Below are positions 16,109 through 36,136 of a stretch of 64,000 nt of DNA, piece after piece. The translations under genes were made by a program, and so were the position numbers. The first letter of the stretch is position 1. Every line of letters begins with the position of its first letter. This stretch comes from Verrucomicrobiota bacterium (GTDB taxonomy: Bacteria > Verrucomicrobiota > Verrucomicrobiia > Opitutales > Coraliomargaritaceae): assembly GCA_039815375.1 (NCBI GenBank), contig JBCBZJ010000005.1, forward strand, positions 1 to 64,000, given 5' to 3'. The notes under the pieces are model-generated. The model was not told the DNA's origin, did no database searches, and saw only the letters and a program-made list of their open reading frames with translations.

Positions 16109-16154
16109 AAATCGACATCCAAATCGATTTCGACCTCGATTTGGATGTCGATTT
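16109..16154. repeat. Perfect 19-bp inverted repeat built from AAATCG-like hexamers
   Basis: aaatcgacatccaaatcga - 8 nt loop - tcgatttggatgtcgattt. Confidence 0.85.
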
Positions 16155-16444: not shown

Positions 16445-17056
16445 GTGGTAGGTATTATTGCGTTTCTGAGCCCTCTGACCAGCGCGATTGCTGTAATTAA
16501 TCTTGATTTTACGGAAGATGGCACAAGCCTAGTTTTGACTGTATCCGGTGTTATCGATGAACTCCCTTCGTTGACTCCCCAGAGTGTCGATAGGATCGCA
16601 CTGGTGCAGATTGATTCGCGGAGCACACAGATCTTCATATCGAGTATAGGGGTTTTCACCGCTTTTGATGAATACAGAGATGACTCAGTCAGTGCTCTTC
16701 CGCCGGGGAGCCCATTTACTGTGCCCCCTACACCGAATACGGCCAATGGAGTGTTTACTTCGGGTAGCAATTTCCGTTTAGCTCTAACAACAGGTCAATA
16801 CACGTTATCTCTCCTGCCTGGCACATTAGCTGGAGATACAGTTGGGTCTGTTACGACCTTCGCCAATACCAGTTTGGCAGACCTTGGATTGCCAAGCAGT
16901 GGTGCTGGAGTGCTCGAACTCTCAACCGTGAGTGCGCTTCCTGATATTACTTGGGGCGTTAATGGAGTTATTGTGCCCGAACCGTCGATGTTTGGTTTCG
17001 TGATGGGATGTTTTGCTTTAGGTGTTTTGGGGTGTCGGCGATCATTGAGAGGCTGA
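16445..17056 (+). CDS. PEP-CTERM surface protein (start uncertain)
   Basis: C-terminus IVPEPSMFGFVMGCFALGVLGCRRSLRG; signal-like N-terminus. Confidence 0.85.
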   Translation: MVGIIAFLSPLTSAIAVINLDFTEDGTSLVLTVSGVIDELPSLTPQSVDRIALVQIDSRSTQIFISSIGVFTAFDEYRDDSVSALPPGSPFTVPPTPNTANGVFTSGSNFRLALTTGQYTLSLLPGTLAGDTVGSVTTFANTSLADLGLPSSGAGVLELSTVSALPDITWGVNGVIVPEPSMFGFVMGCFALGVLGCRRSLRG

Positions 17057-17090
17057 TTTTCAGTTATTGAATGAGGCAGTAATAATTACG

Positions 17091-17520
17091 CTAACTCAGT
17101 GGATTGACCCAACGGGTACCTTGAAAGCGATCAAAGTCGCGGTCGCTGCTGTAAACGGTGGCAGAGTGTTCCCGGGCGTGTGCTGCGATAATAGCGTCGG
17201 TGCTCAGGTTGCCACCCATACCTGCGTCCTCCAGTAGATCAAAGAAAACGGGCAGGGCACGCTTCGAAGTTTGTATCAGCCGCACCTGTGGGCAGTCGAA
17301 CCATTGCTCTACCATTTCACGGACTTGCTCGATACTCAAGGGTGCTGCGCAGATCTGGGGATGCGTCAGGATACGGGTAAAGGCGAGTACCACTACCCAG
17401 GGGATGCCCGATGCTTTCCTCCCCGGATAGAGCCGTTTGCCACCAGTCTTTGGCTGATATGTGGTCACGGCTGGAGCGGTCGTGCGCGTAGATCAATAAG
17501 TTTGCATCAGGGAGAATCAT
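17091..17520 (-). pseudogene. vapC: VapC PIN-domain toxin, frameshifted
   Basis: MILPDANLLIYA...SGEESIG in one frame and GIPWVVVLAFTRILT...DAIIAAHA...SSDRDFDRF in another; one extra G near 17408. Confidence 0.85.
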
Positions 17521-17771
17521 TTTTCGGCGACGTGGAGGTATTCTTCGGTTTCCAGTTGATCGTAGACCTGATTCAGACTTATGCCACGATACGCGGGGCG
17601 TATACCAACAGCGTGTGTTTTGAGCCGCACGCGTTTCTTAGGTTTTGACGGAGTGGAGAGCCCCCTTTCCAGAATCTCATTTACAACCTTAGTCATGGGC
17701 CTTTTCTCAATGCGTGCTCGCTTCTTGAGTTCATCAAGAATTGCCTCTTTGATGTCAATTGTAGCTCACAT
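17517..17771 (-). pseudogene. vapB: VapB-type antitoxin with a nonsense codon at codon 2
   Basis: Reads M*ATIDIKEAILDELKKRARIEKRPMTKVVNEILERGL...; its TGA overlaps the vapC ATG. Palindrome gcatcatgatgc at 17778-17789 upstream. Confidence 0.75.
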
Positions 17772-17892
17772 AAAGAAGCATCATGATGCGTTTTTGATTC
17801 TATCGCAAGCTAAATATGGTCCATTGAAAATTCCTTTAGAATTAGTCGCCGAGGTGATCTTGAAGACGAAGTAACCGTCCCAACCTGTGGCA

Positions 17893-17955
17893 CTTGAGGT
17901 CTTCGGTTGATGACGTCGCAGACGATGCTGACGGCTTCGGGATTTAATTCGGTTT
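17893..17955 (-). pseudogene. Internal fragment of the repeated small ORF (TELNPEAVSIVCDVI)
   Basis: Near-identical to 18361-18422 with a 1-nt insertion. Confidence 0.8.
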
Positions 17956-18071
17956 TCTCATACGAAGCGCAGCAGCGCGAAAATGGTAAATCGGAACGAT
18001 TTGCCCGCAGCGTAACGGAGGGTGAGCGATGCAGGTGCCCTATGGGCGACAGAGGGAACAAAGAGTAGAGC

Positions 18072-18159
18072 AAGAGAAGGTAGGGACGGCTGCCCCCAGC
18101 CGTCCGCGACATTTAAACGACGCTCGGACGCTTGAGGGCAAGCGTCCCTACCTTCTCTT
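18072..18159. repeat. GTAG-type REP doublet (REPIN-like)
   Basis: ggtagggacggctgcccccagccgtcc ... ggacgcttgagggcaagcgtccctacc; outer arms aagagaaggtagggacg / cgtccctaccttctctt. Confidence 0.75.
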
Positions 18160-18210
18160 TTCAGATTCATAATCTCACGCGAAGAACTCAAAGGCGCTAA
18201 GTATGATTGA

Positions 18211-18292
18211 AACAGGAGGAAGCAGAGCGAGCAGAGTTATAGCTCCGCGTGATCCAAATCAAATCTCTCTGTTTACTCTGCTGCCTCCTGTT
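18211..18292. repeat. ~82-bp hairpin element (26-bp AACAGGAG..CAGAG inverted arms), copy 1
   Basis: aacaggaggaagcagagcgagcagag ... ctctgtttactctgctgcctcctgtt. Confidence 0.9.
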
Positions 18293-18315
18293 CAATTGTT
18301 CGTTTTCCTGAGCTG

Positions 18316-18510
18316 CTATCGGAGTTGTTGGTGATACTGGTCCAGAATGGTTTCGATCTGCTTGAGGTCTTCGGTGATGACGTCGCAGACGATGCTGACG
18401 GCCTCGGGATTCAATTCGGTTTGGGCGTCCGGTGATCGGGCCTCCGCCGCCACGACCTGTGCCAGGGAATCAATCCGGTCCATGAATCGGCCGGTGTCTT
18501 CTGGGGCCAT
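18316..18510 (-). CDS. Small helical hypothetical protein, copy of 23131-23361 (possibly decayed)
   Basis: MAPEDTGRFMDRIDSLAQ...LKQIETILDQYHQQLR; mostly synonymous or conservative differences from the other copy. Confidence 0.6.
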   Translation of the reverse strand: MAPEDTGRFMDRIDSLAQVVAAEARSPDAQTELNPEAVSIVCDVITEDLKQIETILDQYHQQLR

Positions 18511-18633
18511 GGGGTAGGTTTTTAATGCGTCGGTCTTCTGGATCGCGGCGCAAGACTACAGCTTTTCGTCAGCATTATCCACATCGTGGAACCTATGTTT
18601 TAGATTTTGCCTTCAATACCCTCTAGTTCTACT

Positions 18634-19050
18634 CTAACGCTGAAATAGATTGTCAATTGACTGCCGGTCGTTCTTACGGTAGATGTAAAAATCGTGGTCT
18701 ATGCTAATGACTTTACTGATGCGTTCGCGCTCGGCGATGCGCATGAGTGTCGCGTCGGCAAAGTCCATCGGGAGGTCGGAGTATTTCTCAGTAAGTTCGC
18801 AGATGCGGTTAAGGTCTTCGGTCTGGATGTCGTGGATTTGCACACCACCGTCAAGCACCCAGCTCAGGAAATCGAGCTGCGCTTGAACCGAGAAGTCGAG
18901 TAGGTGGGTGACTTCGGTCAGCACGGCGACCGTGCTGTGCAAAGAGCCGACGTAGTTCCTGAGGAAGTCGCAGATCGCTTGGTGGAACTGATCATCGCGG
19001 TCAAAGAGGGCGATGAGTGGGCCTGAATCAATGACGGCCCGTTTTCCCAC
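18634..19050 (-). CDS. vapC: PIN-domain (VapC-like) toxin
   Basis: VIDSGPLIAL, VLTEV, MDFADA, ISIDHDF. Confidence 0.9.
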   Translation of the reverse strand: MGKRAVIDSGPLIALFDRDDQFHQAICDFLRNYVGSLHSTVAVLTEVTHLLDFSVQAQLDFLSWVLDGGVQIHDIQTEDLNRICELTEKYSDLPMDFADATLMRIAERERISKVISIDHDFYIYRKNDRQSIDNLFQR

Positions 19051-19279
19051 GAAGCTTTTCCTTCAATTTCGATTTGCGGGTGGTGGAGAGGTCGCCACGG
19101 CCACTGCCAACCCGACCAAAACGCTCGCTGCCGAGCTGCCAGGGCGTGGCACGGCGCGACTCCTCCTTGAGATGTTCATCAATCAGGTTGCGGAGGAATT
19201 CAGACTTGGTCAGGCCCTGCGCCGCTGCTGTGCGATCCAGTGCCTGCTCCGTCTGCGGGTCTAAACGAACAGATAGCAT
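19028..19279 (-). CDS. vapB: RHH/CopG antitoxin
   Basis: MLSVRLD...GLTKSEFLRNLI; overlaps the toxin start; tgtatgac direct repeat upstream (19281-19300). Confidence 0.85.
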   Translation of the reverse strand: MLSVRLDPQTEQALDRTAAAQGLTKSEFLRNLIDEHLKEESRRATPWQLGSERFGRVGSGRGDLSTTRKSKLKEKLRGKTGRH

Positions 19280-19372
19280 GTGTATGACAGTGTGTATGAC
19301 GCGTGTGGCGTCAACCCGAAATCTGACTTACTGGATCGAAGTGAAGAATGGTTTTAACAGGAGGAAACAGAT

Positions 19373-19705
19373 GAAGCGCAGCAGCGCGGAAATGGTAAAT
19401 CGGAACGATTTGCCCGCAGCGTAGCGGAGGGTGAGTGATGCGGATGCCCTATGGGCGGAAGAGGGAACAAAGAGCAGAGCAAGTGTCCCTACCTTCTCTT
19501 TTTAGATTCATAATCTCACGCGAAGAACTCAAAGGTGCTAAGGATGATTGCAACAGGAGGAAACAGAGCGAGCAGAGTTTGGGTTTCTGATGAACTGGTA
19601 TTTCAAACCTCTGTTTTCTCTGCTAGCTCCTGTTCAATTGTTCGTTTTCCTGAGCTGCTAGCGGAGTTGTTGGGGATACTGGCCCAGGATGGCTTCGATC
19701 TGCTT
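19373..19705. repeat. Long direct repeat, copy 2, containing hairpin copy 2 (19552-19634) and a 3' fragment of the small ORF
   Basis: Alignment by eye to 17964-18363; extra single arms at 19356, 19711 and a partial hairpin at 19855-19924. Confidence 0.9.
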
Positions 19706-20125
19706 ATTTGAACAGGATGAAACGGAGGGAGCAGAGTCGTTGTTTCGTGTTCCCCGTTGGCTTAGTCCGGCCTTGTCGTCTCCGCATTCCTCGGAAGCGT
19801 AAATAGCGAATTAATCTAACCGCTGAGGTCGGCGGGGATTGGAGATGAGGTCTTAACAGGAGTAAAAGAGAGAGCAGAGTTGTTGCTTCGCGTGATCCAA
19901 ATTAAACCTCTGTTTTCTCTGCTAGGAGTTTCAGTCTAGTGATTGCTCGCCGCTGGCAACTCCTCCCATGTCATCTTTTGAGCCCTCTGAAGACGTAAGA
20001 CGCGAAAAGGATGATTGAAACCGGAGGACGCCCTTGATCTACGCCGCGACAAGCAGAGAGAGTAGAGGATGAGCTTGTTTCTCTATGGGCTTGATGATTT
20101 CCGCGATTTTGTAATTCTGGTGAGT

Positions 20126-20416
20126 ATGAACAACGCCGAAACAGTGCGCCAGAAGCTTGCGGAACATAGCGACCGCTTACGGGCTTTGCATGTTTCGAGC
20201 CTGTCGCTTTTTGGGTCAGCGGCGCGCGGTGAGGCGACTGTGCATGACTTGGATTTTCTGGTCGAATTTTCAGAGCCGCCTGGCCTCGTGAGTTTTATGG
20301 AGCTGAAGTTTTTCCTCGAAGAATGCTTTGGGCTGCCGGTTGATTTGCACACAGCCAAATCCTGCCCCGAGCGTTTCTATCAGCGTATCGAAAACGAATT
20401 GCAGCATGTCGCGTGA
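20126..20416 (+). CDS. mntA: Minimal nucleotidyltransferase antitoxin (MNT)
   Basis: LFGSAARGE...DLDFLVEF, PVDL. Confidence 0.88.
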   Translation: MNNAETVRQKLAEHSDRLRALHVSSLSLFGSAARGEATVHDLDFLVEFSEPPGLVSFMELKFFLEECFGLPVDLHTAKSCPERFYQRIENELQHVA

Positions 20417-20738
20417 TCCTTCTCTACGTTTGGAGGATATTCTCGAAGCCGTCGAGATGGTGGAAAACTATTTGGACGGATATGACTTCGAGCGATTTAC
20501 AAATGACCGCAAAACTGTCGATGCCGTGACACGTAGGCTGGAAGTGGTTGGCGAAGCTGTAAAGCACTTGCCCGAAACCATGACGGACGCATACCCCGAA
20601 GTGCCTTGGCGAGCGATTGCGGGTTTTCGTGATGTGATCGCACATAGTTACTTTCGCACGGAAGATTCAATCATCTGGGATGCAGCAACAGAAGGCCTGA
20701 AAGTTTTGAAGCTCGCAGTGAAGCGTCTGCTTGGGTGA
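20406..20738 (+). CDS. hepT: HEPN (DUF86) RNase toxin
   Basis: DAVTRRLEVVGEA, PEVPW, RDVIAHSY (RX4HXY). Confidence 0.9.
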   Translation: MSRDPSLRLEDILEAVEMVENYLDGYDFERFTNDRKTVDAVTRRLEVVGEAVKHLPETMTDAYPEVPWRAIAGFRDVIAHSYFRTEDSIIWDAATEGLKVLKLAVKRLLG

Positions 20739-20868
20739 ATGATTTTTTGAACCACCCGCGCCTGCGGCGCTAAAGAATACGGAGGATTGGAGAGGCGTCC
20801 AAATCGCAATCGTAATCGACGGAGCGTTTTTCTCACGCAGAGAACGCAGAGACGCTAAGGATAATTTT

Positions 20869-21012
20869 AACAGGAGGAAACAGAGTTAGCAGAGTTAGTT
20901 TTTTTATGAACTGATACTTTAATCCTCTGTGTTCTCTGCTAGCTCCTGTTCAATTGTTCGTTTTCCTGAGCTGCTAGCAGAGTTGTTGGTGATACTGGTC
21001 GAGGATGGCTTC
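20869..21012. repeat. Hairpin copy 3 (20869-20950) plus 3' remnant of the small ORF
   Basis: Same arms, then caattgttcgttttcctgagctgcta and the reverse complement of ..AILDQYHQQL. Confidence 0.88.
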
Positions 21013-21081
21013 AAATGCAAAGATAACGACATGACCCTTTTTCTGACCTGTATTACGCGACCAGCTTCCATCCAAATTCAG

Positions 21082-22821
21082 CTATTTTTTGGCTTCCCTC
21101 TTGGCCTTTTCGGTAGCTTTACGTTCAGCTTTTTCGATAGCTTCCTGGAATTTCTTTTGCGCAGGGTTTATGCGTTTGTGTTCTATGTCCGAGTCTGGCT
21201 GTGGGAAGGCAACGTTCTTTCTTGCAGCTCCTTTCTTAAATCCATTCTCCAAGTATTTACAAAGGGCTTTCTTGCCTTCTTCGCTTTTGATGTATTCCAA
21301 CCAGAGTTGGCCGTGCAGGTACTCATGGTAAAGTAGCCCTTTGTTGGAAGCAGTCTGGTTGAATTTACCGACCCAGAATAGGGCGATAATCGATTCTACG
21401 CTGAATACGATTACACCTTTTCTCAAACTGTAGGGCATACTTCCAGGTTTATACATACCATCGCCCTTTTTGTCCTTCGGCTCGTCCTTGGCGGGTTTTG
21501 GTGTTGGTCCAAACTTCCAACGGTGTTTCACCTTGATGGTAATCTCCTGCTCTTTACCGTTCACAGTCATCTTGCACTTGAATTCCAACAAAAGCTTGTA
21601 GGCGCCGCCCATGAACTTAAGGAAATCGTCCACCTTGATCGGCGCCTTGCTCTTACGCTTCAGAAAGTTGGCGTGCAGCGCCTTGTAAAGGCCATCAAAG
21701 TAATTCTTGTCGGCTTTCTCGATTTTCTTTGCATTTTTTGGATCGGTTGCCTTGGCAGCTTCTTTAGCCTTCTTCTCTGCATCGTCTACCAAGTCGCCCA
21801 AGCTCTTTTTCTTTTTCTGCGGCCCCGGTGCCTTTTGCTGCAAAAGCTTTCCTGCTTGTTCCGGTAATTTGCCGATGCGATCAATGATCTTTTTACTGGT
21901 TGATTTCGTTCTCTCGGTATCGCATTTAAGCGCACTCTCGTAAACCCGCTTCAGGCGTTTGTAGGCAAGAGCCTCTTTAAGCTGTTTAATTAAGCCGGTG
22001 ATACCTTTTTTCTTTTCTTTAATCGCTCCCTTTACTGCCGCTAAGGCTTCTTGCAATTTCTTGATCGCTTCCTCAAGTGCCTTTACGGCCTCTTGTGCAG
22101 CTTCCAGTTGCACAGTGCCTTCAAGGGAATATGGATCGAGCCTTTGCAGGTTCTTGAGGTTCGCTTTTGCTTTCCTTAACTGCTCCTTCAATTTTTTGAG
22201 GATATCTTCGGCAGCTTTTATCTCTTTGTCTGCGAATTCATTTTCAACTTGTAGGTTATTGAGCGCTTCTTCAGCCGCTCGCATACGCTTAAGCAGTTTC
22301 ACCAACGCGGGTAGCTTTTCCTTATCAACCAGCCTTACATTTACAGTTTTGCCATCTATACCCGGGACACCGGCAGAACTCTTGTCTGGCTTGGGCAACC
22401 CAAGTCTCGGGCCAGATGTATCGACACCTGCCCAAAGATATTCTTTTGCAAGTTGTGCGTACTCTTTGGTTTTAGGACCAGAACATTCTTTGGCTGCGCC
22501 GATGGCCTTCTTGATGATCTCTGCAGCTTTATCGAGCTTCTTCTGGATATCTGCAGCTATATCCCGATTTTTCTTCGCGATATTATTTAGCACATGTGAA
22601 TTTTTACTCTGCTTCTTTGCATTGTCTTCATGTCGAGCTGCAAGATCCAGATGACTCTGCCGTTTTGCCTTCCACTTTTGGCGAGCCTTCTCCGCTTCTA
22701 CAAGTGCGAACCATTTGCACGCGGCGTTGCGATCTTTGAATATAACAGAATTTCCGCCATCTTTTTTTACTCCGGGTATACCGAAGGTCGGGTTTTTGAG
22801 AGGGATAGTAATTTTTGCCAT
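21082..22821 (-). CDS. Lys/Ala-rich coiled-coil protein with a C-terminal HEXXH motif
   Basis: 579-aa ORF, heptad-like central region, LLYHEYLHGQ. Confidence 0.8.
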   Translation of the reverse strand: MAKITIPLKNPTFGIPGVKKDGGNSVIFKDRNAACKWFALVEAEKARQKWKAKRQSHLDLAARHEDNAKKQSKNSHVLNNIAKKNRDIAADIQKKLDKAAEIIKKAIGAAKECSGPKTKEYAQLAKEYLWAGVDTSGPRLGLPKPDKSSAGVPGIDGKTVNVRLVDKEKLPALVKLLKRMRAAEEALNNLQVENEFADKEIKAAEDILKKLKEQLRKAKANLKNLQRLDPYSLEGTVQLEAAQEAVKALEEAIKKLQEALAAVKGAIKEKKKGITGLIKQLKEALAYKRLKRVYESALKCDTERTKSTSKKIIDRIGKLPEQAGKLLQQKAPGPQKKKKSLGDLVDDAEKKAKEAAKATDPKNAKKIEKADKNYFDGLYKALHANFLKRKSKAPIKVDDFLKFMGGAYKLLLEFKCKMTVNGKEQEITIKVKHRWKFGPTPKPAKDEPKDKKGDGMYKPGSMPYSLRKGVIVFSVESIIALFWVGKFNQTASNKGLLYHEYLHGQLWLEYIKSEEGKKALCKYLENGFKKGAARKNVAFPQPDSDIEHKRINPAQKKFQEAIEKAERKATEKAKREAKK

Positions 22822-23025
22822 AAGAGAAGAATATCAGCTTTGTTACGTAATTACTTTTCTTCCAATCCAATAATCAAACTTATAATAGCCATAACTTAGA
22901 AAGTCTTATACAGCTAGCATGGCAGCTGCCACTGAAAAAAATATTCACCGCGAAGATATTGTGGGCCAGTTTTAGGCACCTCGACCAAGCCGCCACCGCC
23001 ACGAGTAAATACAGAGGATAGTTGT

Positions 23026-23107
23026 AACAGGAGGAAACAGAGCGAGCAGAGCTAGGTTTTTTATGAGCTGATATTTCAAACCTCTGTTTTCTCTGCTACC
23101 TCCTGTT
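23026..23107. repeat. ~82-bp hairpin element, copy 4
   Basis: aacaggaggaaacagagcgagcagag ... ctctgttttctctgctacctcctgtt. Confidence 0.9.
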
Positions 23108-23130
23108 CAATTGTTCGTTTTCCTGAGCTG

Positions 23131-23361
23131 CTAGCGGAGCTGGTCGTGGTATTGGTCCAGGATGGTTTTGATCTGCTTGAGGTCTTCGGTGATGACGTCG
23201 CAGACGATGCTGACGTCCTCGGGATTTAATTCGGTTTGAGCGTCGGGGGATCGGGCGGCCACCGCCACGATCTGTGCGAGGGAATCAATTCGGTCCATGA
23301 ACCGGCCGGCGTCTTCTCGGGCCATTGCGTAGGTTTTCAATGCGTCGGATTTCTGAGTCAC
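23131..23361 (-). CDS. Small helical hypothetical protein (longest copy of the repeated ORF)
   Basis: 76 aa; five copies or fragments in 17.9-23.4 kb. Confidence 0.65.
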   Translation of the reverse strand: MTQKSDALKTYAMAREDAGRFMDRIDSLAQIVAVAARSPDAQTELNPEDVSIVCDVITEDLKQIKTILDQYHDQLR

Positions 23362-23407
23362 GCCTGCATCCTACAGGTTCTCGTCGGTATCGTCCACGTA
23401 GTGGAAC

Positions 23408-23525
23408 TACGTTTTGGAAAGCACTTGGAGATAAAATAGCTGACCTGCGAAAGCAGGCTGGACTCACTCAGGAAAAGTTAGCTGAGATGAGCGATTATTC
23501 CGTTGAATTTATTGGTCGAAGTTGA
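23408..23525 (+). pseudogene. Truncated XRE-family HTH regulator
   Basis: LGDKIADLRKQAGLTQEKLAEMSDYSVEFIG, ending where the AIPR gene ends. Confidence 0.7.
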
Positions 23526-25260
23526 AGTCAAATTCTAACGGAACAGAAATTTTAATTTCTGATTTTGAATATTTCCTGTAAGCCTCAAAAACAAGAAGTG
23601 TGTCTGATTCTGCCTTATACTGACGTTTGGTTTTATCTAGGCTAGATTTTTCAAAGATAGCTTCGGCCTTCCTGAACAGTTCAAGTGCTATAGCTCGACT
23701 GCTCAACTCTTGTTTGAACTCCTCGCATTTTCTGTCCATCTGCTTGCTGTTCATGGGGGCAAGGTCTTCTCCCATAGACAACAGTCGTGCTAATAGGAGT
23801 ATGTGGTAGCGGATGTTTTTACTCGCCTGTTTTAGTTCACCTGTTCGAAGAAATTGCTCTACTCTATAGTAAGCCAGAGCACTTACATAATAGGGTGAGT
23901 AAACGTGGTCATTTGCAAAAATTTTACCCGTAAACTCTCTTATGATTGCCCCGTAGTAGCCGCTCACTAGGTGAGGTGAATTTAGAAACATTGAAGCAAA
24001 GGCCTTAATTTGGGTAGGTATTGAGATAATCTGTGACCTCAGGATTGTTGGGACTGAGTTGTATTGCTGGGATCTTCTTTCGTAATACAGCGGTATTTCA
24101 TCACTCTCGGCTTGAAAATAGAGTTCAAGTTTTTTCTGAAATGCATTTAAAGCTTCAAGTTGTTCAGCTTTAACTTCCGTCTGGCTGTTCGTTGCAAGCG
24201 TTATGCTTGTTTTAATATCGTCATTCTCGGTGATGACAATTCTGACAGGGACATTAACAGAATCGATGCCTTCAATTTGTTGGCACTCGTGGAGGACATG
24301 GCTCGACTGGCATCCATTTACCACCTGATAGTCTCTAATGGTGAATCTATTCCCGGCTGGAGTCAGAGATGTTGCAACGACTGTTACTCCGTTGTTCAAA
24401 ACGCAAAATTGGTCAAATTTTCCGCTTTTTAGTGTATTCTTAATCTGACGATTAACGTGGTTGTTTCCTTGGAAGTCCCGGACGTTCTCATCGAATATAT
24501 TGTGGATCGATTGGTTTTCATCCTGAATTAGCTTAAGGAACTCTGAGAGTGGTATTATTCCTATATAGGCCTCCGAGACACCCTCTATATCTGGTAAGGT
24601 AATTCTATTCTGGAAAGTGATCGTTGTAGATAATTTGTTCTTACTTTGCTGATAAAGGTTTTGAATCTCCGATGCACCTAGCGGTTCAAATTTGGTTTCT
24701 TCAAAGAGGGAAAGGGAGTCGATCTGAGTAGTTCCTTCATCGATAACAGCCCGAAGATTTTCGTCGTCCGCCCATTTGCCGGTGCACGCGTAATACAGAC
24801 GACACAGTGGTCTTCTGTTGATCATGAACGAAGACATCGAAATTAATTGTTCCCACAGAGCTTTTACATGTGCCACTTTTGAATTCTGCCGAAGCTTAGG
24901 TTGATCGCTCAAGAAGTCCTTTACTCCATGTGTGAATGTTCTCATTGCAGCCCCATCGAATGAAGAGGACGACTTGGATTGAATGAATGTTATGTCTGCG
25001 TCTATCTGGCCAGCTGCGTCTACTATGTCTTGAAGCTCATCTTCGGTTACTATGCGACCATTTACAGTGAGAAGAATTCCATCGATTCCACAGTCATTTC
25101 CTGCCCCGCAATGAATGTCTTCTAATCCAAAGCTACCTCTAAAAAGCTTCGTTGTTATCAGGTTATTGATGAAATGCTCGAATTGAGTAGCTTCAGATAA
25201 TCCATTCAACTCATATTGTGCCGAAAAAGTCGTTAGAAGGGATTTCGTTATCTTGTCCAT
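23509..25260 (-). CDS. AIPR-family protein (abortive infection phage resistance)
   Basis: DCGIDG, ENVRDFQG, LNNGVTVV, YQVVNGCQSS, ATNSQT, YYERR. Confidence 0.9.
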   Translation of the reverse strand: MDKITKSLLTTFSAQYELNGLSEATQFEHFINNLITTKLFRGSFGLEDIHCGAGNDCGIDGILLTVNGRIVTEDELQDIVDAAGQIDADITFIQSKSSSSFDGAAMRTFTHGVKDFLSDQPKLRQNSKVAHVKALWEQLISMSSFMINRRPLCRLYYACTGKWADDENLRAVIDEGTTQIDSLSLFEETKFEPLGASEIQNLYQQSKNKLSTTITFQNRITLPDIEGVSEAYIGIIPLSEFLKLIQDENQSIHNIFDENVRDFQGNNHVNRQIKNTLKSGKFDQFCVLNNGVTVVATSLTPAGNRFTIRDYQVVNGCQSSHVLHECQQIEGIDSVNVPVRIVITENDDIKTSITLATNSQTEVKAEQLEALNAFQKKLELYFQAESDEIPLYYERRSQQYNSVPTILRSQIISIPTQIKAFASMFLNSPHLVSGYYGAIIREFTGKIFANDHVYSPYYVSALAYYRVEQFLRTGELKQASKNIRYHILLLARLLSMGEDLAPMNSKQMDRKCEEFKQELSSRAIALELFRKAEAIFEKSSLDKTKRQYKAESDTLLVFEAYRKYSKSEIKISVPLEFDFNFDQ

Positions 25261-25353
25261 TTAGCCTGTAGATACTGTTAGTTTTTTAAATACCTAGCGG
25301 TCTTTTGTTCAATTAAATTAGCTCAGAGGTTGAGTTGCGTATATTTATTAACG

Positions 25354-30311: not shown

Positions 30312-32867
<2,556 letters not shown>

Positions 32868-32950
32868 TATCTATTTCTTTGAAATGAGTGGCTCTGAATT
32901 TCTGAACTGGAGGTGACTGTTATAAGTGGTGCCAGGATGACGCTAAATTT

Positions 32951-33128
32951 AACAGGAGGAAGCAGAGAAAACAGAGGGTTTAGTGACGCTATCTCTAACA
33001 GGAGGAAGCAGTTAGAATTGAAGCATGGATTGATGCTATTTCTAACAGGAGGAAGCAGAGATAGCAGAGGAGTTCGTGATGAATACTGTGTGGTGATTTA
33101 TAAACAGGAGATAACAGAGAGAGCAGAG
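32951..33128. repeat. Four tandem copies of the AACAGGAG..CAGAG arm
   Basis: Arms start at 32951, 32997, 33044 and 33103. Confidence 0.9.
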
Positions 33129-33129
33129 G

Positions 33130-33552
33130 CTAGGCTGACGCTGTTGCGGAAGAATGTTTATTGTAGAGTCGGCTCACGCCTTCGGTGAGGCGGGCGACGT
33201 TGAAGTTGATTAGAAGTCCGACCGGGAATCGGAGGAGTCGGAGGTAGGAGAGGGTTTGCGCTTTATGCACGGGAGTGACTGCTTCGACGGACTTAAGCTC
33301 GGTGAGGACTTTATCATCGACGATTAGATCACAGCGCAGGCTCTCCTCAAAGACGAGGTCCTTGTATGCGATATTGACCTGTGTCTGTTGCTCGACCTGA
33401 TGCCCGCGAAGTTGCAGTTCATGAATCAAGCAACGCTCATAAATCGATTCCAAGAGACCAGGCCCGAGCGCACGGTGCACTTCGATCGCCGCAGCAATCA
33501 CTTTGTGTGTGAGCTCAGGATAAATGTCCTGGTTGTTGGATACGTCGTCCAT
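33130..33552 (-). CDS. GxxExxY protein (PD-(D/E)XK nuclease fold)
   Basis: LGPGLLESIYE, RCDLIVDDKVLTELKS, QTLSYL, GLLINF. Confidence 0.93.
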   Translation of the reverse strand: MDDVSNNQDIYPELTHKVIAAAIEVHRALGPGLLESIYERCLIHELQLRGHQVEQQTQVNIAYKDLVFEESLRCDLIVDDKVLTELKSVEAVTPVHKAQTLSYLRLLRFPVGLLINFNVARLTEGVSRLYNKHSSATASA

Positions 33553-33578
33553 CTCTGTTCTCTCTGCTATCTCCTGTT
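33553..33578. repeat. Inverted arm abutting the GxxExxY start codon
   Basis: Its reverse complement is 24/26 identical to 33103-33128. Confidence 0.92.
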
Positions 33579-33583
33579 AGAAT

Positions 33584-36136
<2,553 letters not shown>

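Follow-up and report, generated by a model that had tools for sequence, protein, structure and literature searches.

What is a small gene of a nuclease-fold family doing between gyrB and gyrA, enclosed almost to the base by inverted repeats that also occur, with only a short loop between them, elsewhere on the same contig? This arrangement is found in a 64-kb stretch of Verrucomicrobiota DNA (contig C12:1-64000 of the source genome G000, a 3.56-Mb assembly of 66 contigs), which we call the window and whose DNA is also contained in marine metagenome runs, with no RNA run listed among them. The open reading frame (ORF) encodes a GxxExxY protein of 140 amino acids (aa), and together with its inverted arms it is referred to here as the cassette. 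A preliminary description of the window had proposed a pair of autonomous and non-autonomous mobile elements. We favor, with a probability of about 45%, the reading that the cassette is an optional gene-plus-arms unit resembling the ORF-bearing intervening sequences (IVS) of 23S rRNA, likely selfish and only rarely copied to new sites. This GxxExxY unit belongs to a broad class of genes enclosed by inverted arrays, which is common to two unrelated small protein families.

The bracketed gene and its protein

The features of the locus, in the order in which they are read, are the following.

33584-36124, minus strand: gyrB, the upstream host gene (context)
33553-33578, minus strand: 5' arm, AACAGGAGATAGCAGAGAGAACAGAG on the sense strand, three units of 8-9 nt, touching the ATG; 25 of 26 positions are the same in the orthologous cassette of genome G188
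33130-33552, minus strand: GxxExxY protein gene, 140 aa, PD-(D/E)XK fold probably of the Cas4/lambda-exonuclease type
33103-33128, minus strand: 3' arm 1, complement of the 5' arm (24/26), 1 nt past the stop; 33103-33129 is the same in G188 (27/27)
33070-33102, minus strand: inter-arm spacer, unusually conserved non-coding DNA; 31/33 the same in G188
33044-33069, minus strand: 3' arm 2, tandem copy; 26/26 the same in G188
32997-33022, minus strand: 3' arm 3, degenerate tandem copy with 2 mismatches in a 17-mer
32951-32976, minus strand: 3' arm 4, tandem copy, from repeat comparison and motif match
30312-32867, minus strand: gyrA, the downstream host gene (context)

The 5' arm and 3' arm 1, of 26 nt each, are 92% complementary. 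On the sense strand, the 5' arm consists of an AAC-led head followed by 9-nt units with a CAGAG ending (AACAGGAG-ATAGCAGAG-AGAACAGAG), while 3' arms 2 to 4 ride on a tandem unit of 46-47 nt that occupies 32938-33079. When up to 3 mismatches are allowed, the 17-nt arm motif has 19 matches in the window compared to 0.92 expected, a number equaled in none of 100 shuffles. The preliminary description of a gene bracketed by one arm touching its ATG and another 1 nt past its stop is confirmed far beyond chance, and the three further arms in tandem and the AAC at the start of every arm of this family in the window were likewise borne out. As RNA, the cassette is predicted to close in a stem of ~25 bp (-171 kcal/mol, z -5.66). 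No target-site duplication is evident at the ends of the window's cassette, and its annotated neighbors include no transposase or recombinase gene.

The 140-aa ORF has PF13366 (PDDEXK_3; E 5.5e-41, 140 bits for a cut-off of 22) and TIGR04256 (GxxExxY protein; E 1.2e-42, 145 bits for a cut-off of 35) as its sole family matches, and it matches neither the HUH Y1 family (RAYT) nor any known transposase family. The GxxExxY motif (G32, E35, Y38) and the PD-(D/E)XK catalytic residues (D75, E85, K87) are intact, in agreement with the D..ELK motif recognized earlier, and all six belong to the residues that are invariant in 33 aligned members (G30, G32, E35, Y38, D75, E85, K87, Q99, Y103, N116, F117). 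A PDB sequence search with the protein gave no match below E 0.4. The AlphaFold model (pLDDT 91) has as its top Foldseek rows Cas4 SSO0001 (E 1.2e-3), MGME1, alkaline exonuclease, lambda exonuclease, and RecE, all of them weak (E 1e-3 or worse). These structure matches are weak but consistent, and they agree with the conserved Q..Y motif, suggesting a fold of the Cas4/lambda-exonuclease type. Its family, PF13366, is large and is listed without an assigned function, and the accessible portions of the literature found on GxxExxY or PDDEXK_3 proteins give no function.

The same design among relatives

The source genome contains three GxxExxY genes and one PF05635 gene, all between housekeeping genes and each with its own different arms. 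Besides the gene of the window, there is a GxxExxY gene on C15, between metK and an adenosylhomocysteinase-like gene, with an inverted-flank score of only 11, and another on C40, between tRNA genes, with a score of 20.5. The PF05635 gene ('23S rRNA IVS protein') on C11 is flanked by inverted CAGAAG/CAGAGG arrays, and its neighbors, named by eye, read like pyruvate-dehydrogenase E1 alpha and beta. Across the order, 151 genomes were sampled, of which 79 contain PF13366, a single genome having as many as 20 matches, and 71 contain PF05635.

For a flank test, we picked loci by protein score alone and aligned the 170 nt upstream to the reverse complement of the 220 nt downstream, a score of at least 14 being taken as positive; the same geometry moved by 800 or 1100 nt provided the controls. 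Arms were found at 20 of 33 loci in a first GxxExxY set (controls 2/121), at 16 of 18 loci of the closest relatives of the 140-aa protein (controls 0/71), and at 23 of 31 loci of PF05635, the four-helix-bundle '23S-IVS protein' genes (controls 0/118). With the GxxExxY sets pooled, flanking inverted arrays occur at 36 of 51 loci compared to 2 of 192 positional controls, which makes the link between gene and arms, first noticed in the window, general in this order. Short units, such as CACAGAG, CGCAAAG, CACGAAG, or GGCACAAAG, are repeated to build the arms. Of 59 cassettes, 51 have an upstream arm with a purine content above 60% and 2 have one below 40%. By a crude open-frame method, co-orientation with both neighbors was found at 34 of 72 scorable loci (77 examined). 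A search with the 140-aa protein alone gave 9 related loci. For some GxxExxY matches, the open frame is 469-547 aa long (e.g. G162:C5:91561, G101:C2:261355, G071:C17:106249, and G296:C27:15459), and these may be in-frame insertions into larger genes.

The arms also follow the protein, as they should if they co-vary with protein phylogeny, a check named in the preliminary description. When the 36 GxxExxY cassettes that have arms are compared in 630 pairs, kin-related pairs included, protein identity correlates with arm similarity (Spearman 0.39), and none of 2000 label permutations reaches this value. Arms starting with ACAGRAG, as in the window, accompany all six proteins nearest to the 140-aa protein (56-64% identity) and none of the 18 proteins below 52%. 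Planctomycetota relatives of 62-64% identity have (TTTT)GAACAGAAGG arms too. Since kin are not independent, this co-variation shows that gene and arms travel jointly, and not by itself that one recognizes the other.

In all 30 loci compared, gyrB is next to gyrA. A first comparison of these loci found the 140-aa protein between the two genes only in its own locus, and a later pattern search added a single genome, G188, whose gyrB-gyrA spacer contains this cassette too, extra arms included. The G188 locus holds the same cassette as a Verrucomicrobiota metagenome-assembled genome (MAG) record found by the single-protein search (89% match). In a spacer survey of 24 family genomes, the GxxExxY cassette is present in two (G000 and G188), and two others contain a PF05635 ORF, with inverted AAATCGAA arrays in G007 (0/200 shuffles) and with weak arms in G017 (13/200). 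A gene-less inverted repeat of other unit types is found in G014 and G002 (0/200 shuffles each), whereas seven genomes have a spacer of 106-163 nt without a significant inverted repeat and eleven have one of 31-73 nt. The spacer comparison called for by the preliminary description thus gives filled, differently filled, and empty sites, the gene not being fixed there. Contigs of four marine metagenome runs aligned to the cassette indicate that related strains have it at the same place. No clean empty allele was found in these four runs, the two joints that skip 810 and 960 nt being low-likeness contigs with short sides.

Comparison of G000 with G188 gives a measure of constraint. Four-fold third positions are the same at 57 of 101 sites in gyrA and 45 of 71 in gyrB (together 102/172, 59%) and at 47 of 64 in the cassette ORF, whose divergence is host-like or somewhat lower. 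By codon position, identity of the ORF is 90.8, 97.7, and 76.2%, as is typical of a protein under purifying selection. From the stop through arm 2, 84 of 86 positions (97.7%) are the same, compared to 64 of 82 in the rest of the spacer toward gyrA. No other DNA of the locus is as well conserved as the arms, including the 5' arm, and the first inter-arm spacer.

Near-identical pairs of cassettes are present in three relatives, the two members of a pair occupying different loci and ending sharply close to the arms. In G087, two GxxExxY cassettes lie 2.3 kb from each other and share 95.5% identity over 465 nt; this identity begins ~12 nt outside the 5' arm and stops ~5 nt past the 3' arm. The two GxxExxY copies of G045 are on different contigs (98.9% over 554 nt), and the two PF05635 cassettes of G129 are separated by 20 kb (98.6% over 511 nt). 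All three pairs have unrelated flanks, and the ends of the copies show no target-site duplication. An equal-scoring pair in G049 was considered as a further case and rejected, as on comparison its members are not close copies.

Two further observations concern the plasticity of the cassettes. The two copies in G129 (L173 810-1030 and L174 770-1050) have 5' arrays of 11 and at least 24 GGCACAAAG units, respectively, and a 3' arm of one or two units; unit arrays grow and shrink fast and need not be symmetric. In an Opitutales MAG (JAJFLS010000434.1; L128 1430-2200), a GxxExxY cassette between genes named by eye as rfbB-like and rfbA-like retains its arms and the first ~35 codons, while the rest is swapped for a second, degenerate cassette of FEVY type with its own arms and internal stops.

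Gene-less hairpins and the toxin-antitoxin island

The arm family of the cassette also occurs in the window without the gene, together with a small ORF.

18211-18292, no strand assigned: gene-less hairpin 1, same arm family, loop ~28 nt, arms at 18211 and 18276; z -5.4 / -6.3
19552-19634, no strand assigned: gene-less hairpin 2, arms at 19552 and 19618, from motif matches and folding
19855-19925, no strand assigned: truncated hairpin with an incomplete right arm, from repeat comparison
20869-20950, no strand assigned: gene-less hairpin 3, arms at 20869 and 20934, from motif matches and folding
23026-23107, no strand assigned: gene-less hairpin 4, arms at 23026 and 23091, from motif matches and folding
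19356-19372, plus strand: solo arm, 1 mismatch to the motif
19711-19736, plus strand: solo degenerate arm, 2-3 mismatches to the motif
23131-23361, minus strand: small ORF of 76 aa without a family match, whose 3' end forms a repeated module with the hairpin

The arm pairs with ~30 nt between them that the preliminary description had listed are all present, the one at 19855 in part, but they are embedded in larger repeats. They lie 10-15 kb from the cassette and all within 5 kb. The four complete hairpins fold on both strands (z -4.2 to -6.3), the plus strand being better by 3-7 kcal/mol. The claim that they lie shortly past stop codons holds for hairpins 1 and 4, which are 23 nt past the stop of a small minus-strand ORF. 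Each gene-less hairpin sits within a repeat of 154-402 nt that holds the 3' end or the whole of an ORF of 64-76 aa without a family match, of which there is a second copy at 18316-18510 and fragments near 17893, 19640, and 20960. The hairpins are therefore not independent copies of a hairpin alone, and local duplication accounts for their number without transposition. The spacer positions between the CAGAG cores are mismatched identically in all four, which fits the duplication of one module. No upstream arm that would make the small ORF a bracketed cassette is evident, and an Rfam search on the hairpins gave only sub-threshold look-alikes of miRNA precursors.

Genome-wide, the arm motif has 25 matches with up to 2 mismatches, of which 15 are in the window and the remainder includes solo arms on C40 and C38. 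The gene-less population amounts to 4-5 hairpins and roughly six solo arms, and what had been called the non-autonomous population is small and local. A pattern search of the family genomes gave 17 matches in G000, 6 in G188, and 0-2 in each of 99 others, the arm family being essentially private to G000 and to G188, the sole genome sharing the cassette. Although G188 has the cassette, it has no such gene-less hairpins and only 2 solo matches.

Besides an AIPR gene and a lysine-rich ORF of 579 aa that matches no family, the surrounding island (17000-25300) contains two PIN + RHH pairs and one MNT + HepT pair. Its segments are parted by the module of hairpin and 64-76-aa ORF (no Pfam match), with 3'-end fragments of this ORF at each boundary, and the island gives the impression of islets that accreted at a single site of recombination. 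The proposal that the GxxExxY protein drives this adjacent cargo array was not upheld, no link of the protein to the toxin-antitoxin array being shown. A metagenome contig of 155 nt (run X2, depth 4) joins 20956 back to 18311, linking the right arm of hairpin 3 (20924-20956) to the longer small-ORF copy after hairpin 1 (18311-18425), which suggests another module order in a related strain and is not decisive.

Other arm types stand beside these hairpins. Directly adjoining hairpins 1-3 on the left (18173-18210, 19514-19551, and 20831-20868) is a solo purine-rich arm of another unit type, CACGCGAAG-AACTCAAAG-GCGCTAAG or CACGCAGAG-AACGCAGAG-ACGCTAAGG. Similar mosaics of different arm families side by side are found at C40:48479 and 51108, beside ATCCGCG-type units. 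A second, unrelated hairpin family has arms of 28-35 nt (GGTAGGGACGGCTGCCC... type), a loop of ~20 nt, and at least 11 copies genome-wide (also on C11, C14, C33, C54, and C59), with one copy at 18072-18159 directly adjoining hairpin 1 and a partial copy at 19373-19483. Perfect 19-bp gene-less hairpins of AAATCGA units occur in the window (16109-16154) and at C14:19998, C62:241330, and C38:4382 of G000, and AAATCGA units also bracket the PF05635 ORFs in the gyrB-gyrA spacers of G007 and G017. The PF05635 gene of G000 itself has other arms, leaving the AAATCGA hairpins without an ORF-bearing partner in that genome.

Explanations and known systems

If the cassette is an optional, IVS-like unit, as we favor, the Cas4/lambda-exonuclease-like nuclease would recognize the unit arrays of its own arms. 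Cleavage of DNA might occur on the outer AAC/GTT ends or close to them, or on alleles that lack the arms, and repair after cutting would copy in the whole unit. The arms could pair into the ~25-bp stem in the gyrB-cassette-gyrA transcript, where RNase III, whose gene is present in G000, may cut the stem and make the insert tolerable; this RNA step is proposed solely by analogy with the 23S IVS. The gene-less hairpins of the window would be derivative arm pairs, multiplied by local segmental duplication together with the small ORF rather than mobilized in trans. Linking GxxExxY proteins to a defined DNA partner, their own flanking unit arrays, opens a direct and cheap biochemical test of their role. 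Such cassettes would also alter the expression of essential operons such as gyrB-gyrA if processing of the arms takes place in RNA.

Several observations weigh against this reading. The host-like divergence at the shared site indicates that the cassette in the G000 and G188 lineages is, as judged from sequence comparison, an old resident or the result of exchange by homologous recombination, and not a fresh transposition. There is no recent second copy of the window's cassette, and the closest relative, apart from that in G188, is 64% identical. The duplicated stretch in G045 reaches 84 nt beyond the 5' arm, and 15 of 51 GxxExxY loci fall below the inverted-repeat threshold. The co-variation could stem from plain co-inheritance of gene and arms. 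Four-helix-bundle cassettes exist without a nuclease, so the nuclease cannot be the general mover. Finally, the inter-arm mismatches comprise 50 that are sense G.U-compatible, 74 that are antisense-compatible, and 103 others, and this lack of a sense-strand G.U excess means that they do not support selection on an RNA stem.

The best-surviving alternative, which we consider unlikely, is the one first put forward, namely a pair of the RAYT/REPIN or insertion sequence (IS)/miniature inverted-repeat transposable element (MITE) type. Here, a GxxExxY transposase would act on the arms as DNA hairpins, move the gene-less hairpins in trans, and shape the toxin-antitoxin array. Part of that proposal stands: the unit character of gene and arms, the arm-protein co-variation, the polymorphism of the site, and the near-identical cassettes at different loci in relatives. 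In addition, a single, nearly private arm family is found both around the gene and as gene-less hairpins, and these hairpins fold well as single strands. The analogy fails in the few, clustered, and duplicated hairpins, just 4-5 within 5 kb, each in its repeat with a small-ORF 3' end, and in the absence of target duplications at the ends of copies in relatives. It also leaves G188 with a cassette and no such hairpins, and the AAATCGA hairpins of G000 with no ORF-bearing partner of that type. The role of a PD-(D/E)XK protein as general transposase is contradicted by the PF05635 cassettes, which share the design without a nuclease, even at the gyrB-gyrA site in G007 and G017.

Less likely still is an RNA element that serves the host, with the arrays acting as hairpins for processing, insulation, termination, or translation control at operon junctions, the ORFs being passengers and the protein not interacting with the arms. 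The 97.7% conservation of arms and inter-arm spacer between G000 and G188, the ~25-bp stem, and the gene-less hairpins in the spacers of G014 and G002 would all suit such an element, as would the purine-rich upstream arm (51/59), which puts Shine-Dalgarno-like GGAG/AAGG motifs beside the start codon. Nevertheless, 11 of 24 family genomes have no insert at all at this site, and no sense-strand G.U bias is seen. No promoter or terminator consensus was found in 32700-33800, and no Rfam family fits. Arm-protein co-variation and duplicate copies at unrelated sites are also unexpected for a host regulator.

We regard as improbable that the cassettes are passive cargo, moved by other machinery (insertion-sequence ends, recombinases, or general recombination), with a role of the nuclease elsewhere, for instance in repair or defense. 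The 84 nt beyond the 5' arm in the G045 copies point in this direction, as does the recombination-like replacement of the 3' part of the Opitutales MAG cassette by another. However, the duplicated unit of G087 begins and stops ~12 nt or less from the arms, and the window's cassette has no transposase or recombinase gene as a neighbor. The strong conservation of the arms and their co-variation with the protein also call for a role of the arms themselves.

An integron attC site is defined by R''/R' boxes of the form RYYYAAC / GTTRRRY, an unpaired central spacer, and extrahelical bases. The gene-less hairpins, imperfect, with AAC...GTT at their base and at cargo boundaries, might be taken for such sites, forming a cluster of attC sites lacking integron integrases (CALIN) with toxin-antitoxin cassettes and unrelated to the GxxExxY gene, the more so as G000 has three integron integrases. 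We rejected this identity, which is very improbable, since the core of the hairpins differs from the integrase-adjacent repeats of the clade: in the related complete genome G014, the repeats beside the integrase have another core, AACGTCGCTAACGCGCCG. With up to 2 mismatches, the AACGTCGCTAACGCGCCG core occurs at 10 sites elsewhere in G000 and at none in the window's island. When read by sequence, the hairpin flanks fit RYYYAAC/GTTRRRY solely in the AAC/GTT triplets, and the same arms enclose an ORF at gyrB-gyrA, unlike attC sites. The three integrases of G000, all above the TIGR02249 cut-off (C51:51440-52378, C10:102309-103247, and C24:38892-39821), each lie at a contig end, and their cassette arrays are therefore unassembled. 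Chance similarity of low-complexity sequence, which short and purine-rich units might invite, is refuted by the positional controls (2/121, 0/71, and 0/118), by the 19 matches where 0.92 are expected, and by the conservation of the arms in G188.

We found no description of a gene-plus-arms unit in the literature (subscription journals and supplements lay outside the search). A wider conjecture, which we hold to be doubtful, is that GxxExxY proteins and Avd-like four-helix-bundle 'IVS proteins' are residents of a single class of mobile cassettes bracketed by hairpins, very large and so far undescribed, with the classical 23S IVS as no more than its rRNA-borne subset. Each protein would recognize its own arm arrays, and copying into co-transcribed gene junctions would proceed without target duplication, by a mechanism unlike those of known transposase families.

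Among known systems, integron cassettes share with the island imperfect AAC...GTT hairpins at the boundaries of small cargo rich in toxin-antitoxin genes, and integrases are present in the genome. They differ in that the hairpin sequence family is unlike the attC repeats of the clade, that a hairpin encloses an ORF at gyrB-gyrA, and that, as judged from reading the sequence, the R/L box layout seems to fit only in AAC/GTT. In REP/REPIN systems with RAYT (TnpA-REP, HUH Y1), a gene is flanked by a palindromic repeat that is also found gene-less elsewhere, and the repeat type is tied to the protein lineage. The cassette gene is likewise flanked by a repeat that is also gene-less in G000, and the repeat type follows the protein, but this protein is PD-(D/E)XK and not HUH, and the hairpins are 4-5, clustered in larger repeats, compared to tens to hundreds of dispersed doublets in REPIN systems. 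In contrast to IS/MITE pairs, no target-site duplication is seen at the ends of the cassette copies examined, and the gene of the window's cassette matches no known transposase family.

Homing endonuclease genes provide another parallel, as do non-splicing homing insertions such as the ShiLan element (PMC11855218). The likeness lies in a small nuclease gene that some relatives have and others lack at one precise site, with sharp ends and without target duplication. Homing elements, in contrast, need no terminal inverted arrays, and the gyrB-gyrA site is also taken by cassettes without a nuclease.

The closest likeness is to the 23S IVS. The IVS of Coxiella burnetii is 428 nt long, with an S23p ORF and a 28-bp stem, its excision by RNase III being reported and its origin called unclear (PMC4990558). 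Both that IVS, as presented there, and the cassette are inserts of ~0.45 kb with one small ORF and complementary ends in a long stem (28 bp in the IVS, ~25 bp predicted here), and both are sporadic among relatives (PMC4990558). The window insert differs in lying between the protein-coding genes gyrB and gyrA and not in a 23S rRNA helix, in encoding a PD-(D/E)XK GxxExxY protein (PF13366) and not the S23p / PF05635 four-helix bundle, and in having arms made of short-unit arrays, and RNase III excision, demonstrated for the IVS, is here a prediction by analogy. Nevertheless, the IVS protein family PF05635 fills the same gyrB-gyrA spacer in G007 and G017 and has inverted-array flanks at 23 of 31 loci. 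That the 23S-IVS protein family shows the same design at the same kind of site suggests that rRNA IVS are one face of a broader set of inserts at operon junctions.

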